In this document: piece by piece, positions 50,559 through 60,840 of the stretch
Numbering within the stretch: position 1 is the stretch's first letter
Layout: each line of letters begins with the position of its first letter
DNA from: an uncultured Thioalkalispiraceae bacterium
GTDB taxonomy: Bacteria; Pseudomonadota; Gammaproteobacteria; UBA6429; Thiohalophilaceae
Direction of reading: 5' to 3'
DNA length: 64,000 bases
NCBI GenBank assembly: GCA_964504295.1
Contig: CAZDEC010000007.1
Location: forward strand, 664-64,663
Position numbers and translations under genes: made by a program
The notes under the pieces: generated by a model
What the model was told of the DNA's origin: nothing
Database searches by the model: none
What the model saw: only the letters and a program-made list of their open reading frames with translations

Positions 50559-50610
50559 TTTTTTATCAGAACAAATTAGCTAACTTGAACTGGGGATAAA
50601 AAACTTACGT

Positions 50611-50637
50611 CATTCCCGCCAAAGCCAGGCGGGAATG
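50611..50637. repeat. REP-like perfect hairpin between the convergent amt and nuoN-like genes
   Basis: CATTCCCGCC-aaagcca-GGCGGGAATG (10-bp stem). Same motif family as 21962-22058 and 29548-29702. Confidence 0.6.
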
Positions 50638-50697
50638 GCGCTATTGCTTGGTATAGGTGGAACGGATCTGTATAGGATCCATTATCCCTAACTCAGA

Positions 50698-52083
50698 TTA
50701 GCTCAATTGTTTAAGCAACAGCTGCGCTGCAAGCCCAATGCCGATGGTGAAGAGCAGCGCAATGACCCACACCAGCTTAATCAATGCCGGTGTGACCGTC
50801 GCAGTGCTCGTATCCACTGGTTCATGGCAATGACTTTGCGCCAGATACATTGGCACTATAATGCGCAGGTAAACGGCCAGTGACAATACGCTATTAAGAA
50901 TGGCGATAACGGTTAACCATAAAAAACCGGCATCAATTGCAGCACCAAAGAGTAAAAATTTACCGACAAAACCGGCCAGCGGCGGAATGCCTACCAGTGA
51001 TAAAAGGAATATCACCATGGCTACCCCCAACATGTGATTTTTGCGCCCAATACCTTTAAAGCTATCAAGCGTTCGACCCACTCGCATCACAACGGCAAAT
51101 GCCCCCAGGTTCATCGCAGCATAGGCGGCCGAAAATATAATTAAGGATTGCAGCGCGAGTGAACTCGCCCCCACCGCAACCACACCTAAAAGAAAATAAC
51201 CGGCCTGTGCGATGGATGAATAAGCTAGTAAGCGCACCACATTCTTTTGTACCAGTGCGGCGAGATAACCGTAGGTCATGGTAAGTACCGCAACCACGGC
51301 AATAATCAATGGCCAGCCTGTCGACAGCGGCATATCGCGTACGACCTGGGCAAAAGCCAGTATGGCACCAATCTTTGGTACAACAGATAAATAGGCGGCA
51401 ATGCAGAGCGGTGCGCCTTCGTATGCATCCGGTGCCCAAAAGTGAAACGGTACTAGTGATGCCTTGTAACCCAGGCCAATAATAACGGCAATAAAACCAA
51501 TAATGGCAATAACAGGCGAGGTTTCAAGCTGCCCCAGTTCACTCAGTAGTGTCGAGCCACTCCCGCCGAACCAGTAACTGAGCCCAAAAATCATAATACT
51601 GGTGGTGACCGAGCCAAACACAAAAAACTTTATCGCCGCTTCGGTCGCACTGTCATTTCGTGGGTAAGCCACCAGCGCAAAAGAAGCCAGGCCAGATAAC
51701 AAAACAGCCAGTACCAGTAACATGCTATCGCCCACACCGGCCATTAATATCGAACCCAGACTGACTAGCGTAACCAGAACATACACCGTACCTTCACGAT
51801 CACTACCGGCAAGTTCAGCGCGAGCTAATAGCAAAGACAGTATCGTTGCGGGCAGCAGGATAATTTTTCCCCATACGCTCAGCATATCAATGCGGAAAGT
51901 GCCACCAAAGACCGAGGTGTTCAGGCCAAGTAAAAGCACACTTTGCCATGTTGCCAGCAATAGCCCAACGATAGTCACGGTCAGCACAATTCGTGGGGCA
52001 CGCAGCATCTCGGCAATTAAGGCAAACACCACCGTAAGTAGGATGATGATCTCAGGGATCAGTAAGGCAAGATCTGTTTCCAT
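50698..52083 (-). CDS. Complex-I NuoN/ND2-like antiporter-type subunit
   Basis: 14-TM-like profile. KASLVPFHFWAPDAYEGAP (conserved Lys/His block of Mrp-type subunits). 1-nt start/stop overlap with the M-like gene. Confidence 0.85.
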   Translation of the reverse strand: METDLALLIPEIIILLTVVFALIAEMLRAPRIVLTVTIVGLLLATWQSVLLLGLNTSVFGGTFRIDMLSVWGKIILLPATILSLLLARAELAGSDREGTVYVLVTLVSLGSILMAGVGDSMLLVLAVLLSGLASFALVAYPRNDSATEAAIKFFVFGSVTTSIMIFGLSYWFGGSGSTLLSELGQLETSPVIAIIGFIAVIIGLGYKASLVPFHFWAPDAYEGAPLCIAAYLSVVPKIGAILAFAQVVRDMPLSTGWPLIIAVVAVLTMTYGYLAALVQKNVVRLLAYSSIAQAGYFLLGVVAVGASSLALQSLIIFSAAYAAMNLGAFAVVMRVGRTLDSFKGIGRKNHMLGVAMVIFLLSLVGIPPLAGFVGKFLLFGAAIDAGFLWLTVIAILNSVLSLAVYLRIIVPMYLAQSHCHEPVDTSTATVTPALIKLVWVIALLFTIGIGLAAQLLLKQLS

Positions 52084-53558
52084 TACAATGGCAACGCTAT
52101 GGTGGTTTTATGGATCACATCCAGCACCCAGGCTGGCGCGACACCCAGCGCAATGGTGAAGACCAATAATGGTGCCAATGCAAGTAGTTCACGCGCATTC
52201 AAGTCAGGCATGGTAGCCGTTGTCCACTTATCTCCAACTTCGCCAAGAAACACCTGTGCTATCGCTCGTAAATATAAACCGGCGGTAATAACGATACCGA
52301 GAATAGCAATAATGGCTATAGGCTCAACCTGCAATGTGGCGAGGAAAATCTGAAACTCTGCCGGGAAATGCGCCAGCCCGGGTAAACCCAGCGAAGCAAA
52401 CGCAGCCAGCACAAACGACCAGCCGAGCACCGGTACGACTTTCATTAAACCACCAAACTGATCCATGTCTCTTGTGTGGGCTCGATCCTGCAACATCCCA
52501 ACCAGCAAGAACAACGCGCCTGTCACTAAACCGTGACTGACCATTTGTAATACTGAACCATCTAACGCGGTGGCACGAATGGCGGGATCCGCTGCCAGTG
52601 CGGCAACCGCCACGCCAATAATGATATAGCCCATGTGATTAATTGAGGTATAAGCCACCAGTCGTTTGAGATCCGTTTGTGCCAGCGCGGCAAAAGCGCC
52701 GTACAATGCTGCAATTACCCCGAATACTAAAATCACTACCCCCGCTTCGCGAAAGGCATCTGGCGTCATTTGATAAGCAAACCGCACCAGACCATAGGTG
52801 CCGAATTTCAACATCACACCGGCTAAAATTACACTGCCTGCAGCCGGTGCTTGAACATGTGCGGCAGGTAACCAGGTATGAAATGGAAACACCGGCGTTT
52901 TAACCGCAAAGGTAATCAGCATGGCAATCAATGCAAGCATAGCCGCAAGTCCATCTAAGGGTGGGTTACTGATCCAGACACGCATGTCGAATGTATATGG
53001 GTCACTGCCGAGGTATAAACCCAGAATCGCCAGCAATAATGGCAGGCTGCCAAGGAAGGTATAAATAAAAAACATCAGCGCGGCACGTTGTCGGTCTTCG
53101 TGCCCCCATTGTGCAATCATAAAATACATGGACACCAGTGACACTTCAAAGAAAACGTAAAATAAAATTGCGTCCAGTGCAGTGAAGGCACCGATGGATG
53201 CCGTCTCTAACAGCAGCATCAATGCAACAAAAGCATGTGACTGCTTACGTACTTTGGCAGAATAAATAAAGGTGACAAAAAACAACAACGCAGTTAGCAG
53301 CACTAGCGGTAAGCTAATACCATCCACACCCACCCGGTAGGCCGCACCAATCGAAGGCATCCAGTCAATTTGTTCGAGCTGGGCAAAGCCGGTATCACTC
53401 ACACCACGTGACCACATCACCAGTGCACCCAGCAAAGTCACACCACTGATGACGATACCAATAGCATGAACAACTTGTGGCGATGACTTGCGCATAAGCA
53501 ACACCAGCAATGCCCCAAGCAAAGGTAGAAAGACAGTAATCGATACAATTGGATACAC
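52083..53558 (-). CDS. Complex-I NuoM/ND4-like antiporter-type subunit
   Basis: FFEVSLVSMYFMI (TM5 Glu), KTPVFPFHTWLPAAHVQAP, SINHMGY, VSHGLVTGALFLLVG. Confidence 0.88.
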   Translation of the reverse strand: MYPIVSITVFLPLLGALLVLLMRKSSPQVVHAIGIVISGVTLLGALVMWSRGVSDTGFAQLEQIDWMPSIGAAYRVGVDGISLPLVLLTALLFFVTFIYSAKVRKQSHAFVALMLLLETASIGAFTALDAILFYVFFEVSLVSMYFMIAQWGHEDRQRAALMFFIYTFLGSLPLLLAILGLYLGSDPYTFDMRVWISNPPLDGLAAMLALIAMLITFAVKTPVFPFHTWLPAAHVQAPAAGSVILAGVMLKFGTYGLVRFAYQMTPDAFREAGVVILVFGVIAALYGAFAALAQTDLKRLVAYTSINHMGYIIIGVAVAALAADPAIRATALDGSVLQMVSHGLVTGALFLLVGMLQDRAHTRDMDQFGGLMKVVPVLGWSFVLAAFASLGLPGLAHFPAEFQIFLATLQVEPIAIIAILGIVITAGLYLRAIAQVFLGEVGDKWTTATMPDLNARELLALAPLLVFTIALGVAPAWVLDVIHKTTIALPL

Positions 53559-53573
53559 TAAAAAGTCCTCTTA

Positions 53574-55448
53574 TTAATAAACTATCAATGCGATTAAGCT
53601 GATCACTAAAATCATCGCGCTGGCAATGGTACTGATAGCCAGCTCTTTATGAATCAAACCGCTTTGTAAGGTGCGAGCCTTGCCGGCAAATTTGACTGTG
53701 CTGTCTACAAACGAAAAGATAAAGCCATCAATACCTTTATCATCCGTTCGGCGCGCGACTCGACCGAGTTTAAGTCCTGCTCGACCTATCGCGAGTACGC
53801 CTTCATAAAAAATGCGTTCCAGTTTTTCGCAACCATGAGCAATTGCCATAGCCGGGCGCACCATTAAATTATCGAAACCACCGGCAAGCGCAAAACCGTT
53901 ATTCACCCAGGGTAATAAGCCCCCAAGTAAACGCTGCACAGGAACAAACCAGCCTAAAAACAAACCACTTAAGGCAGCAATTAGCCCGAGTATTTCGGGA
54001 AGAAATTCAGTCGATATGTTTTCGACCTGTGGCATGTTCAGTAATGATTTAAGTGCCGGGAAAGCCGCCGCTAAAACAACCGCCAGCGTGACTAGCCCGG
54101 CCAACCCTGCGCCCATCCAGACGAGACCGGCAAGCGGTTTGTTTTGGGTATTTTTTTGTTCCTGATTTTTATAGCTTTGATTTTTATAGCCTTGATTTTT
54201 ATACCAAAGTATCGATAAGGCTCTAGCCATATAACCGCCCGTTAACAACGTACCCGCCAAAGCAAACGGTAACAGTATTTCGAAATATTCAGCGTTCAGC
54301 GATGCCGCAATAATTGCATCTTTAGAGAAAAAACCACTTAGAGGTGGAATACCGGCTAATGCCAGTGCCGCCAGCGCAAAGCCAATAAATATTCTAGGGC
54401 GCTCATGTCCAACGCCGCGTAATTTTTCCAGCATTGTGCTTTCGCGGCTGTGCTGGAAGACACCGGCACCGAGAAACAGGCTGCTCTTAATGGCGGCGTG
54501 AGCAATCAGGTGTAGCAATGCCGCCATAGGCACGCCCGCACCCACCGCCACCAGCATCAAACCATATTGACTGGAAGTGGATGCAGCCAGCATGCGCTTA
54601 AGATCCGATTCACCCAGTGCAATAAGGCCTGTTACCACGGTGGTCACCCCGCCAACAATACCGATAACCAGTAATGTTTCTGGTGTTAACATCGGTGCAG
54701 TGCGAATTAATAAAATGGCACCGGCTGCAACCAGCGTGGCCGAGTGTAATAAAGCCGATACTGGTGTTGGACCGGCCATTGCGCGTTGTAACCAGTCATG
54801 CAACGGGGTTTGTGCGGACTTACCCATGGCCGCAATCAATAATAATAAGCCAGCAGCCATGGCAGGGTTGCCGCTGGTATTGAGTGTTGCTGCAATTTCA
54901 CTGCTACCGGTGTTGGCGATAAGAATAAACACAGCAATATAAAGACCCAAATCGGCGCTGCGAGTGACCATAAAGGCGCGTGTAGCCGCAGATTTTACCC
55001 CCGGCTTTTTATACCAGAAACCAATCAGTAAATAGCTGCTTAGGCCAATCAGTTCCCAGGCCGACAGTAACAGGATCCAGTCGCCGGCAAGTACCAGTGT
55101 TTGCATGGCTGAAATAAAGAGCAGCATGGTGGCAAAAAAGCGCACTTTTTCGCTATCAGATTTCATATAACCTACGGCATAAATCAGCACAAAACTGCCG
55201 ACGATTGTGACCATGGTTGAAAGTAAGGCGGTTAAAGGTGTCGCGATTAAACGCAGAGGCATATTGGGTAAGCCGGGCAGCAGCAGTTCAGCATTAACAC
55301 CACTTGATACATTAAACAGTAAGGCTAAACTGGCAATCAGGCCTAAGGCAATACCAAATAATGCTAACAGCACCGGAAGTCGGCGTACTAACAGTATTAA
55401 GACAGATGCGGCAAGTGGAGCCAAAATAGCAACGGTAATAAAACTCAT
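53574..55448 (-). CDS. Complex-I NuoL/ND5-like antiporter-type subunit with C-terminal extension (lateral-helix region) and a YKNQ repeat insertion
   Basis: WELIGLSSYLLIGFWY, GKSAQTPLHDWL..AMAGPTPVSALLHSATLVAAG, HAAIKSSLFLGAG. 624 aa. Confidence 0.88.
   Translation of the reverse strand: MSFITVAILAPLAASVLILLVRRLPVLLALFGIALGLIASLALLFNVSSGVNAELLLPGLPNMPLRLIATPLTALLSTMVTIVGSFVLIYAVGYMKSDSEKVRFFATMLLFISAMQTLVLAGDWILLLSAWELIGLSSYLLIGFWYKKPGVKSAATRAFMVTRSADLGLYIAVFILIANTGSSEIAATLNTSGNPAMAAGLLLLIAAMGKSAQTPLHDWLQRAMAGPTPVSALLHSATLVAAGAILLIRTAPMLTPETLLVIGIVGGVTTVVTGLIALGESDLKRMLAASTSSQYGLMLVAVGAGVPMAALLHLIAHAAIKSSLFLGAGVFQHSRESTMLEKLRGVGHERPRIFIGFALAALALAGIPPLSGFFSKDAIIAASLNAEYFEILLPFALAGTLLTGGYMARALSILWYKNQGYKNQSYKNQEQKNTQNKPLAGLVWMGAGLAGLVTLAVVLAAAFPALKSLLNMPQVENISTEFLPEILGLIAALSGLFLGWFVPVQRLLGGLLPWVNNGFALAGGFDNLMVRPAMAIAHGCEKLERIFYEGVLAIGRAGLKLGRVARRTDDKGIDGFIFSFVDSTVKFAGKARTLQSGLIHKELAISTIASAMILVISLIALIVY
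54163..54207. repeat. 15-bp tandem repeat x3 inside the NuoL-like gene, encoding YKNQ(G/S)YKNQSYKNQ
   Basis: TGATTTTTATAGCTT / TGATTTTTATAGCCT / TGATTTTTATACCAA, read directly on the + strand. Confidence 0.9.
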
Positions 55449-55756
55449 CCTTTCAAATCCACCGCTTCTTCCATCTCGACCGAACCCTTGGCGCGGAAGC
55501 GGGCAATGGCTATTGCAAAGCCCACGGCCATTTCAATGGCCATCACGGTCATAATAATCAGCACAAACATTTGCCCGGCTGCCACTTCTGGATGCAGATA
55601 ACGCCAGAAGGCCACTATATTTACCATGGCACCGGCAAGAATAAGTTCCACCCCCATCATAATCATCACTAAATTGGTTTGTGATAATGCACCGTAAACC
55701 CCTACGCCAAATAAGGCTGCACCTGCGGTCAGTGCAATGATTAATTCCATACTCAT
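55445..55756 (-). CDS. Complex-I NuoK/ND4L-like subunit
   Basis: Three TM helices with both membrane-embedded Glu (GVELILAG; AIEMAVGF). 4-nt overlaps on both sides. Confidence 0.88.
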   Translation of the reverse strand: MSMELIIALTAGAALFGVGVYGALSQTNLVMIMMGVELILAGAMVNIVAFWRYLHPEVAAGQMFVLIIMTVMAIEMAVGFAIAIARFRAKGSVEMEEAVDLKG

Positions 55757-56274
55757 TTTTTGCCACTCTCTTTTTTAACAGGTTGAATAGCAACGGCGGT
55801 GGCTGCAATCATCGCGGTTAAAATCGTGATGCCAGCGGTTTCAAAAATCAGCATGGAGCGATCCAGTAGTTCAAGACCGAGATCGACCGTTTGTTGTGCC
55901 GCATCCGGGAAGGTGGTGGCCACGGGGCCCCAGTCGACGAACACTGCTATTGCCACCGCGCCGACAAACGAAACAAAACCGGCGATAAGAGACAATCGTT
56001 TTTGGTGGGTCATATCCATTTCACCCAGACCGCCAGGGTCCATCATAAACATCACCATAAAGATGGCCATAATGCTCATTTCGGTTGCCATCATCATAAT
56101 TTGTAACACACCTAAAAATTCGGCCTGCATGCTTAAAAACATCGCGCCCAGTGCGGTCTGAGAAAATAGCAAAGCGATGGCTGAACGCATCATGGAAAAA
56201 GTGCGGAACACCACAATGCCAAACCACACCGAGGCGAGCCCAAAAAAACCAATAAAAAATGCCTGTGCTGTCAT
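55753..56274 (-). CDS. Complex-I NuoJ/ND6-like subunit
   Basis: 173 aa. The N-terminal three-helix pattern resembles NuoJ (…AIALLFSQTALGAMFLSMQAEFLGVLQIMMMATEMSIMAIFMVMFM). Position between the H-like and K-like genes. Confidence 0.75.
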   Translation of the reverse strand: MTAQAFFIGFFGLASVWFGIVVFRTFSMMRSAIALLFSQTALGAMFLSMQAEFLGVLQIMMMATEMSIMAIFMVMFMMDPGGLGEMDMTHQKRLSLIAGFVSFVGAVAIAVFVDWGPVATTFPDAAQQTVDLGLELLDRSMLIFETAGITILTAMIAATAVAIQPVKKESGKK

Positions 56275-57186
56275 TTAGGGAAACTCCAGTACCAGTACGC
56301 CAACAATAAAAATATTCAGCAGTGCTAACGGGATGCCGATTATCCAGCACCATGAAAGTAAATGCGCTTCACGAATACGTGGCATATAGCGACCGATGAG
56401 TAACATGGCCATGGTAACGGCCAGTATTTTAATTGCGCTCCATGCCCAGGGGGGTAATTCAAAGCCGAACAAATTAAATCCTTGCCAACCACCCAGGTAA
56501 AAAATAACCGTAGCGGCTGCCAGTGTAACGATCAAAACCAGTCGCCCAAGTCGGAAGATGGCCAACCGCATACCGCTGTATTCTGCTTCTATACCACCAG
56601 CGAGTTCACCTTTTGCAATCATCATGTTGAACGGCGGTAAAAATGCCAGTGCCATCGAGGCGACAAAAAATAATATAAAGCCCAGTGGTTGATAGGCAAT
56701 GTTCCACAGGTCGGCTTGTGAAACCACAATTTGTGTTGTTAATAATGATTCAGCACGCATGGCAACGGCAGTAATTGGCATTACAATCAGCATCGCATAG
56801 GCAATGAGTTGCCCCAGAAAACGCCAGCCGCCAATCATGGCATAAGCTCCATCTGGTCCCCAACCTGCCATCAGCAAAGCCACTAGAACATACACCAGTG
56901 CGGCATTAATAAATAATGCACCGGTGGCAAGGTCGGTGATGATTAAATCGGGTGTGAGCGGGATAACCGCCGCCGCCAGCACCGCCGACAAGAGTAAAAG
57001 CACCGGGCCAGCTTCATAAAAAATTTTATCTGGTTTGCGTGGGATAAACGATTCCCGCCCTAAAAAAGCAACCGCGGCAAAAAGGGGCGCACTGAGTTGG
57101 AAGCGGCCTTTGCTGATCCAGTCTTCGAGTACGGCAACAAAATAGGCGCCCAACAGTAAAAAAAATAAAATAAGAAAAGTGTTCAT
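56275..57186 (-). CDS. Complex-I NuoH/ND1 (HycD/EchB)-like subunit
   Basis: [29 protein letters not shown] matches the PFD..E.E.EL..G...EYSG block. The N-terminal ERK..Q.R.GP block of bona fide NuoH is not recognisable. Confidence 0.8.
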
Positions 57187-59111
57187 TGACGTATCTCCCA
57201 GGGAGATAAATCCAGTGAGCCAACCGTAACCAGCGCGTCACCGAGTTCCTGTTGATCGGTGAGTTGTTCAATGAGCGTCAGGTGTTGTGTTGAGGGTGTT
57301 TCAAGTTGTGCCGAGGTTACTTTCCCTTTATTCAGGGTTAATTGCAGAGTGGCTTGTCCGCGTGGTGTTTCAATCACGGCTTGTCCATCACCGCTGACAG
57401 TATCAGTATTATTGGTGACTGAAACCGTGGCGCTGTTCGAGATAGCTGCTTTTTGTATCAGTTCAATGCTTTGTTTGATTTCGTCCAGCCGAAGTTGCAA
57501 GCGCGCATAAACGTCACCGTTTGTTGCGGTAACCGCGGCGAATCCAAGTTCACTGTAAAGTTTGTTATTGTTTCGTGCGTCCATGTTTATTCCTGCCGCA
57601 CGTGCAACAGGGCCGAATACAGTCAGCTCTGTCTCTGTTGGCAACCTGCCTATACCCTGGCTGCGGGATTTTAATAAAGGGGTGCGTTGCAATTGTTTAG
57701 TTAAATCCTGAACGGCTTTTTTCAAATGGGTGACTTGTTGGATATTTGCCTGCATAAACGACTGCTGCAATGATGAAGCACGCTGCTTTAACCAGTCAAA
57801 ACCGGTTTGTTCTGCAAATAAGGTCAGCCAGCTTAGATGACTAACAATGCGTTCTCTTTCCAGTACAACAAGCCGGACTTTAGCCGTGCTGGTTTCAACC
57901 TTGATGCTGGCAGCATCTTCAATCGCTAAACAGGCCAGCAGCCGATAACTGTTTGGTGCAAGCGGATCCAGAGTAGTGAGTTTTTCAATAAAATCACTGG
58001 CGGGGATGGGATGACATAGTAATGACTTGTTTCCAACCAGCGTCGTCGTCTTTGCCGCAGCAACCGTATCGCCATCAAGTGTAAATGTCAGTAATAAACC
58101 CGCTGGTAAGCCCGGAAAAAAAGGTCCAAATGGTACGTCGAGCCAGTCCATAGGTAAACCATCACCGCTACGTGGCAGATTTTTGGTCACATCAATCATC
58201 GACATAAAGCCGGAATCATCGTGGTTCATACCGGATTCCATTTCAGCGTGATCATGACGGCTACTTTGAGGTTCACGTGGCTCTAAATTCATGCCGCATT
58301 CAGGGCAGGAACCGGGTTCACTTTGCACCACTTCCGGGTGCATGGGGCAAGTGTATTCAACCGCCGCATGATCCATATGTTGATGATCCTGCTGTGCTTC
58401 TATTTCACGTGGCTCTAAATTCATGCCGCATTCAGGGCAGGAACCGGGTTCACTTTGCACCACTTCCGGGTGCATGGGGCAAGTGTATTCAACCGCCGCA
58501 TGATCCGTATGTTGGGGATCATGAGAAGAATGATCGTTACTTTCCGTGTTTGGTTCAGTATGACTATGCGGAGCATTAGCCTGTACTTCACGCGGCATCA
58601 GGTTCATGCCGCATTTCGGGCAGGAGCCGGGTTCATCCTGAATTACTTCCGGGTGCATAGGGCAAACATACTCAATGCGAATTTGTAAAACCGGCGCATC
58701 AAAATCTGATACATCAGAATGAAAAGCACTCTTCGCAAGAGTTTTACGCAGTTGGTTAACTCCCTCAACAAGTTCCTGTTGTGAAAGGCCAGCGGTAATA
58801 TCAGCGGTAGGTAAGGGTAATAAATCTGTTGTTGATGTTGTCAGGTTAAACAAAACACGTGGTCGGGGCATTTGTGCATAGATCACCGCCGCTGCGTCGC
58901 GTAATGCCGCGGGCATATCACCCGCAATAAGTAAAACACTGGCGTGGCGAGGACTCGCCACAATGTTGATCCCGGCCGCTTCAATATCTAACCCGTAAGC
59001 ACGTGTGATTTCTGTCCCCGGCACAACATAGACGCCCAGATCCTGAGACATCGAAAAAGAGACTAACCGCTTTAATGCGGATATTGTTCCCTGTCGAGCA
59101 CCGGCGATCAT
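57183..59111 (-). CDS. Fusion protein: cysteine-free NuoB-like domain + three HMBD (CPMHPE...CPxCGM) heavy-metal-binding zinc ribbons + ligand-less NuoD/HycE-like domain
   Basis: B-like: [42 protein letters not shown] x3: Y(V/T)CPMHPEV(I/V)Q(D/S)EPGSCP(K/E)CGMNL(M/E)PRE. D-like: [53 protein letters not shown]...[22 protein letters not shown] upstream of ATG 59111. Confidence 0.85.
58272..58514. repeat. 132-bp (44-codon) near-perfect tandem duplication spanning HMBD modules 2 and 3
   Basis: The sequence from 58272 is repeated from 58404: 103 identical nt, one A/G mismatch (58375 vs 58507), then 7 more identical nt. Confidence 0.95.
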
Positions 59112-59123
59112 TTATTATCTTCC

Positions 59124-59486
59124 TTATTGTCTACGTAGCGCACCCTGACTCCAGCCGTATAACAAACCTAAAAATAAAATCGCCAGAAAAACGCCCATAT
59201 CAAGCAAGGCTACAATTCCGACCTGTTTATAAACAACCGCCCACGGATACATATATGCCATTTCCATATCAAAGGCTAAAAACAATAGGGCATAACCATA
59301 ATAACGTGCATGATAACGAACCCAGACCGGGTCGCGAGATAGTTGCCCTGCCGTTGCAGGTACATCTTTGCCAGGTTCCTGTCGCGCTTTGCCAAAACTG
59401 CGGCCAATGGCGTATATGGATAAAACAAAGCCCACGGTACCGACGACTAAAGCCAGTAATAACCCATATTGCTGCAAGCTGCTCAT
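59124..59486 (-). CDS. Complex-I NuoA/ND3-like subunit
   Basis: Three TM helices. LFLAFDMEMAYMYPWAV matches the NuoA FD(V/I)E..FL(F/Y)PWA block. First gene of the operon. Confidence 0.85.
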   Translation of the reverse strand: MSSLQQYGLLLALVVGTVGFVLSIYAIGRSFGKARQEPGKDVPATAGQLSRDPVWVRYHARYYGYALLFLAFDMEMAYMYPWAVVYKQVGIVALLDMGVFLAILFLGLLYGWSQGALRRQ

Positions 59487-59655
59487 TTTAAATATCCCCT
59501 TGTTATTTTTATATTGTATGGTGTAAATAACCTTACGAATATTAGCTTTATCTGGATGAGTTAAAATAATACTAACGGTGTACTCTGTCTAGATTGAATG
59601 ATATTTTATAGAAGGTCAATTCTTTTACTGCTTAAATGGAAATCTATCCGACTCT

Positions 59656-60840
59656 ATGTCTGTGCACCCTTCATCGAATCAAGGCAATTGTAATATAGAC
59701 GAGTCTGACACCCGCTTTAGAAATATTATTCCTGCCATGAGCACTCCACTGGCATCTATTTTTGGTAGTGGCTTTCTGGTTGTTGTTCCTATTCTGGCAA
59801 GCGCTGTTGGCCCTTATGCAATACTGGCCATGGTGGTGGTTGCCATTGTCGCTTTTTTAGTCGGTAAAATTGTTCGGCATAATATTTTATGTGCTGAGCC
59901 AGTACTGGCAAAGGGTAGTCAAAAATTTACCGTTATAATTGAACGACTTTCAGACTTTGCACTGGTGGCAGCTTATGTGGTTTCGGTATGCCTCTATATA
60001 CATATATTATCGTCTTTTGTTCTTTCCAGCTTCGAGCTGGATAATACGTTTAATAACAGTTTGATGACCTCGATAATAATAGGTGTTATCACTGTTATTG
60101 GTTTATTTGGTGGCTTAAAACCACTGGAAAATCTGGAGCGCTGGGCACTTTTTATTACGCTTATTATTCTTGCCGGGTTATTAGTTTTATTTGCAGTTTA
60201 TGATGTTAAACAGTTTTTATCGCAAGGATACTTTTCTTTACCTGAAATGCCGCAGCGAAGTGGCTGGGAAATTATTACCATTGTTGCCGGTACTTTAATC
60301 GTGGTGCAGGGCTTTGAGACAACCCGCTACCTGGGTGAAACATTTGATACGCTTACTCGTATTCGAGCTTCACGCTGGTCGCAATATTTTTCGTTGAGCG
60401 TTTACGTTATATTTGTTGCTTTAGCGATGCCTATTGTTTCGGTATTGAATGGGAATTATGCAGAAAACAGTCTGATAACGATAGCGGCAACGGCTTCTAT
60501 TTTATTACCTCTGCCGTTGATTATTGCAGCCAGCCTGTCACAGTTTTCGGCCGCGGTGGCCGATACATTGGCCGCAGCAGCTAATATGCAGGAAGCCAGT
60601 CAGCAACGCCTGAATACTCGTTGGGGGTACCTAATGGTGGGGGTATCGGCAATGGCTTTGGCATGGTCGGGGTCTACCTTTGAAATTATTACCCTAGCTT
60701 CAAGGGCCTTTGCTTTTTATTATTTACTACAGTGTCTGGTTGCCTTTAGTGTTTGCCGCAATATTCGTGAACGTATTTTATTCGGTTTTATTGCATTTAT
60801 TCTGGGCTTTGTTTTGTTGTTTGCAGTGCCTGCAGGTTAA
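59656..60840 (+). CDS. Polytopic (about 11-12 TM) permease-like membrane protein, possibly APC-superfamily-like; substrate unknown
   Basis: Hydrophobic periodicity throughout. N-terminal ...PLASIFGSGFLVVVPILA resembles the APC first-helix G-rich motif. Divergent from the nuoA-like gene. Confidence 0.65.
   Translation: MSVHPSSNQGNCNIDESDTRFRNIIPAMSTPLASIFGSGFLVVVPILASAVGPYAILAMVVVAIVAFLVGKIVRHNILCAEPVLAKGSQKFTVIIERLSDFALVAAYVVSVCLYIHILSSFVLSSFELDNTFNNSLMTSIIIGVITVIGLFGGLKPLENLERWALFITLIILAGLLVLFAVYDVKQFLSQGYFSLPEMPQRSGWEIITIVAGTLIVVQGFETTRYLGETFDTLTRIRASRWSQYFSLSVYVIFVALAMPIVSVLNGNYAENSLITIAATASILLPLPLIIAASLSQFSAAVADTLAAAANMQEASQQRLNTRWGYLMVGVSAMALAWSGSTFEIITLASRAFAFYYLLQCLVAFSVCRNIRERILFGFIAFILGFVLLFAVPAG

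Follow-up and report, generated by a model that had tools for sequence, protein, structure and literature searches.

A complex-I-like operon that has lost its redox ligands and carries HMBD repeats and an invariant methionine signature: a candidate copper-handling antiporter

What can a complex-I-like membrane machine be coupled to when its redox chemistry has been lost? This question is raised by an operon of eight genes at positions 50698-59486, on the minus strand, of a 64,000-nucleotide stretch of DNA (hereafter the window) from an uncultured Thioalkalispiraceae bacterium (contig CAZDEC010000007.1, positions 664 to 64,663). A first-pass annotation, made from the letters of the window, had described the operon as Ehr-like (energy-converting hydrogenase-related) and complete, and had proposed a coupling partner related to metal. 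The metal link was supported in the present analysis, and the evidence from the family supports its narrowing to copper. The strongest evidence comes from three features that the first-pass annotation had not seen: the copper islands around orthologues, the Met-rich remodelling of NuoJ, NuoK and NuoA, and the match of the HMBD to a characterised Cu+/Ag+ sensor domain. In the favoured reading, the operon encodes a possible, though short of probable, Mrp-like Cu(I)/H+ antiporter driven by the proton-motive force (pmf), which would export or handle Cu(I) and possibly Ag(I).

Eight minus-strand open reading frames (ORFs) were confirmed in the order A, B/HMBD/D fusion, H, J, K, L, M and N. The coordinates of the first-pass annotation were also confirmed, including the overlap of 1 nt at 52083, the overlaps of 4 nt at 55445-55448, 55753-55756 and 57183-57186, and the direct abutment at 56274/56275. 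In Pfam, each of the eight ORFs matched the expected complex I family. These families include Oxidored_q4 (NuoA), NADHdh (NuoH), Oxidored_q3 (NuoJ), Oxidored_q2 (NuoK) and, in three ORFs, Proton_antipo_M, which is accompanied in the L-like ORF by the NuoL N-terminal domain. No ORF resembling NuoC, NuoE, NuoF, NuoG or NuoI was found within or beside the operon in the window. The same eight genes are present in the same order in 13 other loci with unrelated flanks, and the N-module genes NuoE/F/G are missing from all 13. The operon is thus complete, as had been claimed, and the absence of NuoC/E/F/G/I is a property of the operon itself. No flanking gene is conserved across the loci, and the cassette is therefore self-contained, without a dedicated partner protein.

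The loss of redox chemistry is clearest in the second gene (57183-59111), which encodes a fusion protein of 642 aa with three PF19335 matches and one PF00346 match. Residues 1-145 (58677..59111) form a NuoB-like domain with weak NuoB matches at residues 41-91 and further matches to MbhJ/NDUFS7. This domain contains no Cys, and no conserved Cys was found ahead of the first HMBD in 70 sequences; the domain therefore has no ligands with which to bind an N2 cluster. The NuoB CC motif, presumably GLACCAIEM, would be expected where the domain (unaligned) reads GLDIEAAG. Residues 300-642 (57183..58214) form the NuoD-like domain (PF00346), which begins with an invariant FMSM motif. In the beta1-beta2 loop of this domain, GPQHPxxHG is replaced by a 10-residue sequence without His, which all 70 homologues compared have in the same form. 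In alignments to NdhH and MbhL, DPLAP stands where (R/L)DY carries the quinone-site (Q-site) Tyr, and the position of the N-terminal NiFe CxxC aligns with K...P. At the C-terminus, SLDLSPWE replaces DPCxxC/SIDxxxGE, and no NiFe Cys is present. An AlphaFold2 model of the D-like domain (pLDDT 86) gave NuoD, 49-kDa/NDUFS2 and MbsL as its best Foldseek matches (TM score 0.65-0.78), so that the predicted structure confirms a NuoD/49-kDa fold; in sequence, the domain is roughly as far from NdhH as from MbhL. No solved structure of this complex was found in the PDB copy searched. The first-pass statement that NADH, Fe-S and quinone modules are lacking is accordingly correct for the NADH module and the Fe-S ligands, and has to be qualified for the quinone module, of which degenerate B and D domains remain.

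Between these two domains, three HMBD repeats of the form CPMHPE...GSCPxCGM are found at residues 148-173, 209-234 and 253-278 (58278..58670), joined by His-rich linkers. They score 129 bits with PF19335 against a gathering cutoff of 23.6, and the Cys/Met/His ligands are present in all three repeats. The HMBD profile matches the N-terminal metal-binding domain of LpCopA (8ovl, 3rfu). That domain is a copper sensor in which Ag+/Cu+ is bound via three sulfurs, as determined by nuclear magnetic resonance, and a similar domain is found in SilB (PMC11970713). Repeats 2 and 3 were generated by an in-frame tandem duplication of 132 bp (58272..58514; Tandem Repeats Finder, 99% identical, 1.8 copies). 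Family members carry between 1 and 9 HMBD copies, and the array therefore appears to expand and contract through unequal recombination. The linkers between the HMBDs of the family are rich in His (median 11.6%) and in Met. Both the D-loop and the C-terminal motifs described above are present in 87 of the best 120 fusion homologues.

A second set of altered residues is located in the membrane subunits that correspond to the E-channel of complex I. The NuoJ-like protein (55753..56274; PF00499) contains 173 aa, of which 10.4% are Met. Alignment to P. denitrificans Nqo10 places a Met/Glu ladder on transmembrane helix 3 (TM3), the gate helix of complex I (ND6 TM3). Ladder and TM3-4 loop together cover residues 58-90 (56005..56103), QIMMMATEMSIMAIFMVMFMMDPGGLGEMDMTH. 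The TM3 sequence, VLQIMMMATEMSIMAIFMVMFMMD, differs from the corresponding Nqo10 stretch: it has 10 Met in 22 residues vs 3 in P. denitrificans, the conserved gate Tyr is replaced by Met, and a new Glu has been gained. On an ideal helix, M62, M66, M69, M73, M77 and E65 share one face of TM3. The TM3-4 loop reads MDMTH and carries the residues M86, M88 and H90 (MxMxH). Conservation was assessed in 14 orthologues whose fusion proteins are down to 37% identical. In J, the residues M60-62, E65, M66, M69, M73, M75, M77, M78, D79, M86, M88 and H90 are invariant across this set. About 17 of 20 more distant clusters (26-40% identity) keep the pattern LMMxxEMxVMAxFMVMFMxNPAGLxPMxMxHQ, whereas the J methionines are largely lost in P0144, P0171 and P0172. 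The four canonical NuoJ sequences aligned with these clusters have VYAGG and no Met signature. In complex I, the TM3-4 loop of this subunit sits between both arms and communicates with the ND3 loop, and the E-channel is formed by the J, K and A subunits together with part of NuoH (PMC10212512). Two further features of J homologues were observed. His-rich C-terminal tails are present on the distant homologues P0132, P0135, P0142 and P0153 (e.g., EHGHGHGHVQEHHHGHE...), and one orthologous locus (L086, 13614-15071) encodes a J-like protein of 485 aa with a large extension and 5.5% Met.

Similar changes were detected in K and A. The NuoK-like protein (55445..55756; PF00420; 103 aa, 10.7% Met), aligned to NdhE and NuoK, keeps both key Glu residues in Met-flanked surroundings, with IMMGVELIL and IIMTVMAIEMAVG vs the canonical VLMSIELLL and FVITVAAAEAAVG, respectively. 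M31, M34, E37, M63, M69, M72, E75 and M76 of this protein are invariant in the 14 orthologues. The NuoA-like protein (59124..59486; PF00507, E=3e-24; 120 aa) has FDMEMAYMYPW in TM2 vs the canonical FDVETVFLYPW in an alignment to NdhC, and its D73, M74, E75, M76 and M79 are likewise invariant. The Met content of the orthologues is about 10-12% in J (5.5% in L086) and 8-11% in K, and mostly 2-5% in L, M and N. Of the 69 invariant columns in J, 14 are Met (20%), as are 7 of 56 in K (12.5%) and about 3% in L/M/N. The NuoH-like protein (56275..57186; PF00146; 303 aa) was aligned to E. coli NuoH (7nyh_H). It has lost the N-terminal ERK...GPN segment, E157 of the E. coli protein is replaced by Ala, and a 14-residue replacement stands in place of the acidic TM5-6 loop PFDQPEAEQELADG, so that the acidic residues of the quinone cavity are lost.

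Most of the key charged residues are kept in the three antiporter-like subunits. The NuoL-like protein (53574..55448; 624 aa) scores 383 bits with NF005141 (NuoL) over residues 2-619, and the NuoL alignment is full-length, with the C-terminal lateral-helix region included. The residues E132, D166, K210, H235, H313, H317, K321 and K376 are invariant in L. The NuoM-like protein (52083..53558; 491 aa, GTG start) scores 501 bits with TIGR01972, above the cutoff, and E138, K220, K251, H342 and E401 are invariant. The Lys/Glu/His sets of L and M are complete, and both antiporter modules look functional from their sequences. The NuoN-like protein (50698..52083; 461 aa) scores 296 bits with TIGR01770, below the cutoff of 333. 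Its TM7, TM8 and TM12 lysines are kept and invariant (K207, K237 and K375), whereas the TM5 Glu is replaced by Leu at a position that is not conserved in the family (around residues 119-130); D119 and M121 nearby are invariant. Since the TM5 Glu is replaced, the proton relay of N beside the J/K region is predicted to differ from that of complex I. The first-pass annotation had called the membrane arm functional-looking on the basis of motifs quoted from L, M, N and K. All of these motifs were found, and in the alignments they fall on the canonical positions of the TM5 Glu, the TM7 Lys and the NuoK Glu. The statement that the charged residues are kept stands for L, M and K and fails for the TM5 Glu of N. 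A low-complexity insert, YKNQGYKNQSYKNQEQKNTQNKP, was observed in L at residues ~416-438 (~54135-54203) and is not conserved in the 13 orthologues.

The identity of the metal is suggested by the gene neighbourhoods of the orthologues. Five of the 13 loci adjoin CsoR-CopA-CopZ-YHS, PcoA/PcoB-CusRS or a P1B-ATPase. In Thiogranum longum, genes for a multicopper oxidase (MCO), CopB, a cupredoxin, CusRS, a YHS protein and Pyr_redox_2 are located directly upstream of the cassette. In Marinobacter vulgaris, a cupredoxin-MCO-CopB group lies directly upstream on the same strand. Two divergent high-GC metagenome contigs have the order DUF305-CsoR-CopA-CopZ-YHS-[cassette]-ArsR-P1B-ATPase on one strand, and in one of them the cassette adjoins a resolvase and a Tn3 transposase. 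An HMA-bearing P1B-ATPase is encoded directly downstream of the cassette in Mesobacterium pallidum, and a MerR regulator is encoded nearby in Paracoccus endophyticus. In T. longum (L081, 8406-9590), the gene directly upstream of the NuoA-like gene is the Pyr_redox_2 (NDH-2-like) gene, and a Pyr_redox_dim flavoprotein is encoded downstream; in that genome only, these flavoproteins may serve as redox partners or as cupric reductases. A complex-I-like cassette of Marinobacter atlanticus interrupts a copper resistance operon and is upregulated together with the copper genes (Eddie et al., PMC8233155). The main NADH dehydrogenase of that organism is NQR (PMC8233155).

The hosts of the cassette include Thiogranum, another gammaproteobacterial metagenome-assembled genome, Marinobacter vulgaris, Pelagibacterium, Mesobacterium pallidum, Paracoccus endophyticus and several metagenome contigs. 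The cassette thus spans Gamma- and Alphaproteobacteria as well as high-GC metagenome contigs, two of which have a third-position GC content (GC3) above 0.9. The membrane subunits are 52-92% identical across the loci and 57-92% identical between Alpha- and Gammaproteobacteria. A scan of a genome collection with the fusion alignment, in which HMBD peptides served as patterns, was dominated by unrelated HMBD proteins, and only 6 of its 80 loci were true orthologues; the additional orthologous loci come from look-ups of exact proteins. When the J-like protein was searched against 1.84 billion representatives, only 60 clusters reached E<=1e-10, which indicates a genuine family of limited size. Against four orthologues, nonsynonymous divergence (dN) was 0.09-0.26, synonymous divergence (dS) was saturated, and omega was <=0.09 where computable. 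Because dN is low while synonymous sites are saturated, the operon genes are under purifying selection and are working genes, not a remnant. Genes of mobile elements lie beside some copies, namely resolvase/recombinase, integrase, Tn3 transposase and the conjugation gene TrbI (L088, 16668-19360; L003, 7280-9540), and in Pelagibacterium the cassette is located beside TrbI and a resolvase. The cassette probably travels on mobile elements, because such mobility genes adjoin some of its copies.

Complex I (Nuo/Nqo, NDH-1, Fpo) is the closest relative in gene content. Homologues of A, H, J, K, L, M and N are present in canonical order, and each membrane subunit finds its best family and PDB matches among the chains of complex I or NDH-1. 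The L lateral-helix region, the Lys/Glu/His sets of L and M and both NuoK Glu residues are also kept. Unlike complex I, the cassette has no NuoC, E, F, G or I, its B and D subunits are fused via metal-binding repeats with loss of the N2, Q-site and NiFe ligands, its NuoH cavity residues are lost, its J TM3 is a Met ladder, and its N lacks the TM5 Glu. When the equivalog cutoffs of NCBIfam were applied, only the subfamily model TIGR01972 (M) was passed; NuoD (106 vs 360), NuoH (165 vs 399) and NuoJ (36 vs 154) were among those below cutoff. With N-module, N2 ligands, NuoI and Q-site all lacking, the cassette is not a complex I by function.

Mrp is the closest functional analogy. In Mrp, the antiporter-like subunits move H+ and the other cation uses a region homologous to the E-channel and the Q-like cavity (PMC10212512; PMC7419157). 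The Q-like cavity also holds other substrates among the relatives, namely Na+ in Mrp and polysulfide in MBS (PMC10212512). However, the subunit set of the cassette is A, H, J, K, L, M and N with B/D, not MrpA-G, and no MrpB/E/F/G-type genes are present in the operon. L scores 383 bits as NuoL vs 252 as MrpA, and scores with the Nuo models are generally well above those with MrpA and MrpD. Mrp also lacks a cytoplasmic B/D module with HMBDs, and for the cassette, unlike Mrp, a soft transition metal bound by Met is proposed as the cation. By analogy, the cassette would work most like Mrp, yet it is not Mrp.

The Ehr complexes have a large subunit without NiFe cysteines, encode no obvious redox partner, have no known function (PMC6349859, PMC10284858) and are close to group 4 (4f) hydrogenases (PMC10284858). 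The cassette resembles them in its D-like large-subunit homologue without NiFe cysteines and in the lack of an obvious encoded redox partner. Ehr is described with Mrp-like subunits, whereas the membrane subunits of the cassette are of the complex I type and score best on the NuoA/H/J/K/L/M/N models, 2- to 3-fold higher than on the Hyf/Mrp/Ehb models. The small-subunit homologue of the cassette, again unlike Ehr, is without cluster ligands and is followed by inserted HMBD repeats. Compared with secondary descriptions of Ehr, the cassette probably stands outside that group, and the Ehr-like label is not supported.

A similar cassette in the literature is the 'NuoADHJKL' cassette of M. atlanticus CP1 (ACP86_11540-11570), which is complex-I-like and lies inside a copper cluster (PMC8233155). 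A gene annotated as 'NiFe-hydrogenase III large subunit' is found within this copper resistance cluster and is co-upregulated (PMC8233155). As described, that cassette comprises seven genes; nuoM and nuoN are not among them, and its NuoL lacks the C-terminal extension (PMC8233155). The ideas offered there are tentative only, and the HMBD fusion and Met signature are not described (PMC8233155). The orthologue of the window operon in M. vulgaris, directly behind MCO-CopB, recalls this copper-cluster cassette.

Methionine-rich relay chemistry is used by CusA and is proposed for the cassette. The P1B-ATPase CopA and the RND systems CusCBA/SilCBA also share with it an HMBD-type metal-binding domain (LpCopA, SilB; PMC11970713) and co-occur with it in the same islands. 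In fold and energy coupling the cassette is entirely unlike these exporters, with complex I antiporter-like modules instead of ATP hydrolysis or an RND trimer. In the literature searched, the transcriptome paper on M. atlanticus was the only trace of such a cassette, and neither the family nor its fusion protein, Met ladder or mechanism was found described. The cassette potentially brings a new substrate class to the complex I/Mrp superfamily.

A mechanism can be proposed in which the tandem HMBDs, tethered between the B- and D-like domains, would capture or sense cytoplasmic Cu(I). The Cu(I) would be handed to the former quinone cavity, lined by FMSM and the beta1-beta2 loop of D, the TM5-6 loop of NuoH and the MxMxH loop of J. 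It would then pass along the Met/carboxylate-lined path of NuoJ TM3, NuoK and NuoA, which corresponds to the former E-channel. Proton flow via NuoL and NuoM, together with NuoN, would act through the central charged axis to power the conformational cycle. In its widest form, which we advance slightly more guardedly than the antiporter assignment, the whole complex I scaffold may have been converted to a transition-metal pump, with the quinone cavity and E-channel as the Cu(I) path, the J TM3 ladder as its core, and L/M/N operating 'in reverse' to expel copper. The gene content, the lost redox ligands, the identity of the HMBDs, the Met signature with its conservation, the copper islands around orthologues and the purifying selection are shown by the present data. 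That copper itself is moved, the direction of transport and the coupling to the pmf are inferred.

Several observations weigh against Cu(I)/H+ antiport. The HMBD of LpCopA is regulatory and not a transfer site (PMC11970713), and for this reason the HMBDs of the cassette may only gate activity. No copper genes occur within at least 10 kb of the window operon, whose neighbours are amt, HDOD, GGDEF and response regulator genes, and about half of the examined loci have no obvious copper neighbours. Whole-protein Met enrichment relative to single canonical sequences is modest in J (p=0.03) and K (p=0.08-0.25), and A and H are not enriched; since this enrichment is only marginal, the argument from Met rests on position-specific invariance and not on composition. 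The side faced by the MxMxH loop is taken from the literature topology of E. coli NuoJ. The loss of the TM5 Glu in N and of E157 in H leaves the canonical proton relay interrupted near the junction. In a rather unlikely alternative, the membrane arm moves only H+, Na+ or K+, like Mrp, and copper gates a monovalent-cation/H+ antiporter or pmf modulator. The HMBDs would then be purely a Cu(I) sensor through which copper stress activates the machine, for instance so that pmf or pH is maintained while respiration suffers copper damage. The LpCopA domain acts as a sensor that relieves autoinhibition and not as a delivery site (PMC11970713), the antiporter modules are intact, an NhaP-type exchanger is encoded downstream of the cassette in locus L001, and co-regulation with copper genes fits this explanation equally well (PMC8233155). 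What copper gating leaves unexplained is the presence of invariant soft Met ligands in the E-channel helices, the MxMxH loop and the His-rich tails of J.

Cu(I) could also be exported at a low rate for the maturation of periplasmic or membrane cuproenzymes (cbb3 oxidase, NosZ, MCO), like the CcoI/CopA2-type ATPases. This alternative shares its transport mechanism with Cu(I)/H+ antiport and differs only in physiological role. Many copies, including that of the window, are located in a housekeeping context without resistance genes, a cytochrome c gene is found upstream in locus L082, and MCO genes are adjacent in two genomes; however, the clearest contexts (CsoR/CopZ/CopA, Pco/Cus and mobile elements) are of the resistance-island type, and a supply role is held to be decidedly improbable. 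The same adjacent MCO genes, and the Pyr_redox_2 (NDH-2-like) gene directly upstream in Thiogranum longum, have also to be considered under an ion pump coupled to copper redox chemistry, in which Cu(I)/Cu(II) reactions at the B/D module, perhaps with quinone, would power pumping, as suggested by Eddie et al. for the Marinobacter cassette (PMC8233155). Such a pump would have to operate without Fe-S ligands in B, without NuoI, with the quinone-ligating His loop and Tyr replaced, and with the NuoH cavity acidic residues lost. The LpCopA-type site moreover binds Cu(I) in a trigonal sulfur arrangement and gives no indication of redox activity (PMC11970713), and a copper-redox pump is considered very unlikely. 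The scores of all subunits but M below the NCBIfam Nuo cutoffs, together with the many canonical residues lost from B, D and H, would suit a non-functional remnant of a second nuo operon. However, the cassette is intact and translationally coupled, its order is repeated in 13 other loci across classes, dN is far below dS, the membrane subunits are 57-92% identical between Alpha- and Gammaproteobacteria, and the lost residues have been replaced by new invariant ones. The remnant explanation is effectively refuted by these conservation data and retains almost no credence.

If Cu(I)/H+ antiport is the true function, the cassette would be an unrecognised machine for export or handling of Cu, and possibly Ag, that is powered by the pmf via antiporter modules of complex I and is spread by mobile copper-resistance islands. 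No other member of the complex I/Mrp superfamily would have been known to translocate a transition metal, and bacterial copper exporters, so far P1B-ATPases and RND pumps, would gain a third energetic class, with relevance to metal resistance in marine, hydrothermal and engineered settings. It would also represent a naturally redox-free complex I, in which the coupling elements under most debate, namely ND6 TM3, the ND3, ND1 and 49-kDa loops and the E-channel Glu residues, are re-used for another substrate. Cu+ or Ag+ would then be a simple ligand with which to address, free of quinone chemistry, the old question of how the cavity drives the antiporter subunits.

The operon shares its upstream intergenic region (59487..59655) with a divergent gene. 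A single weak sigma-70-like match, TAGACA-17-TATTTT, was found on the operon strand at 59591-59563 by consensus matching only, and no metal-regulator (CueR/CsoR-type) operator was recognisable by eye in 59487..59655. The divergent gene (59656-60840) encodes a protein of 394 aa that the first-pass annotation had called a permease. No confident Pfam family was found for this protein, the DUF373 match (E=2.5e-4) being below cutoff; the gene is not conserved beside orthologous operons. Downstream of the operon lies a convergent ammonium transporter gene (amt, PF00909). The GC-rich hairpin between the convergent N-like and amt genes (50608..50640, 13 pairs) had been noted as a repetitive extragenic palindrome (REP) hairpin; it is present and is likely a bidirectional terminator.

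The rest of the window encodes chromosomal housekeeping functions (Obg, ProB, IspB, PurT, MsrA, LpxA-like and signalling proteins), and no metal genes were found elsewhere in it. The GC content of the operon is 0.46-0.49 vs 0.36-0.44 in its flanks, and its GC3 is 0.42-0.54 vs 0.32-0.44 in neighbouring genes. Because this GC3 excess is only modest, the raised GC is a weak hint of horizontal transfer. An ORF of 607 aa at 676-2499, unrelated to the operon, encodes a 4Fe-4S dicluster (DmsB-like) domain fused to a DmsC-type membrane anchor. Genes for DUF2933, an ICMT-like methyltransferase and a YncE-type beta-propeller protein were observed near two gammaproteobacterial copies of the cassette (L082, 20661-21516; L001, 9212-10468).

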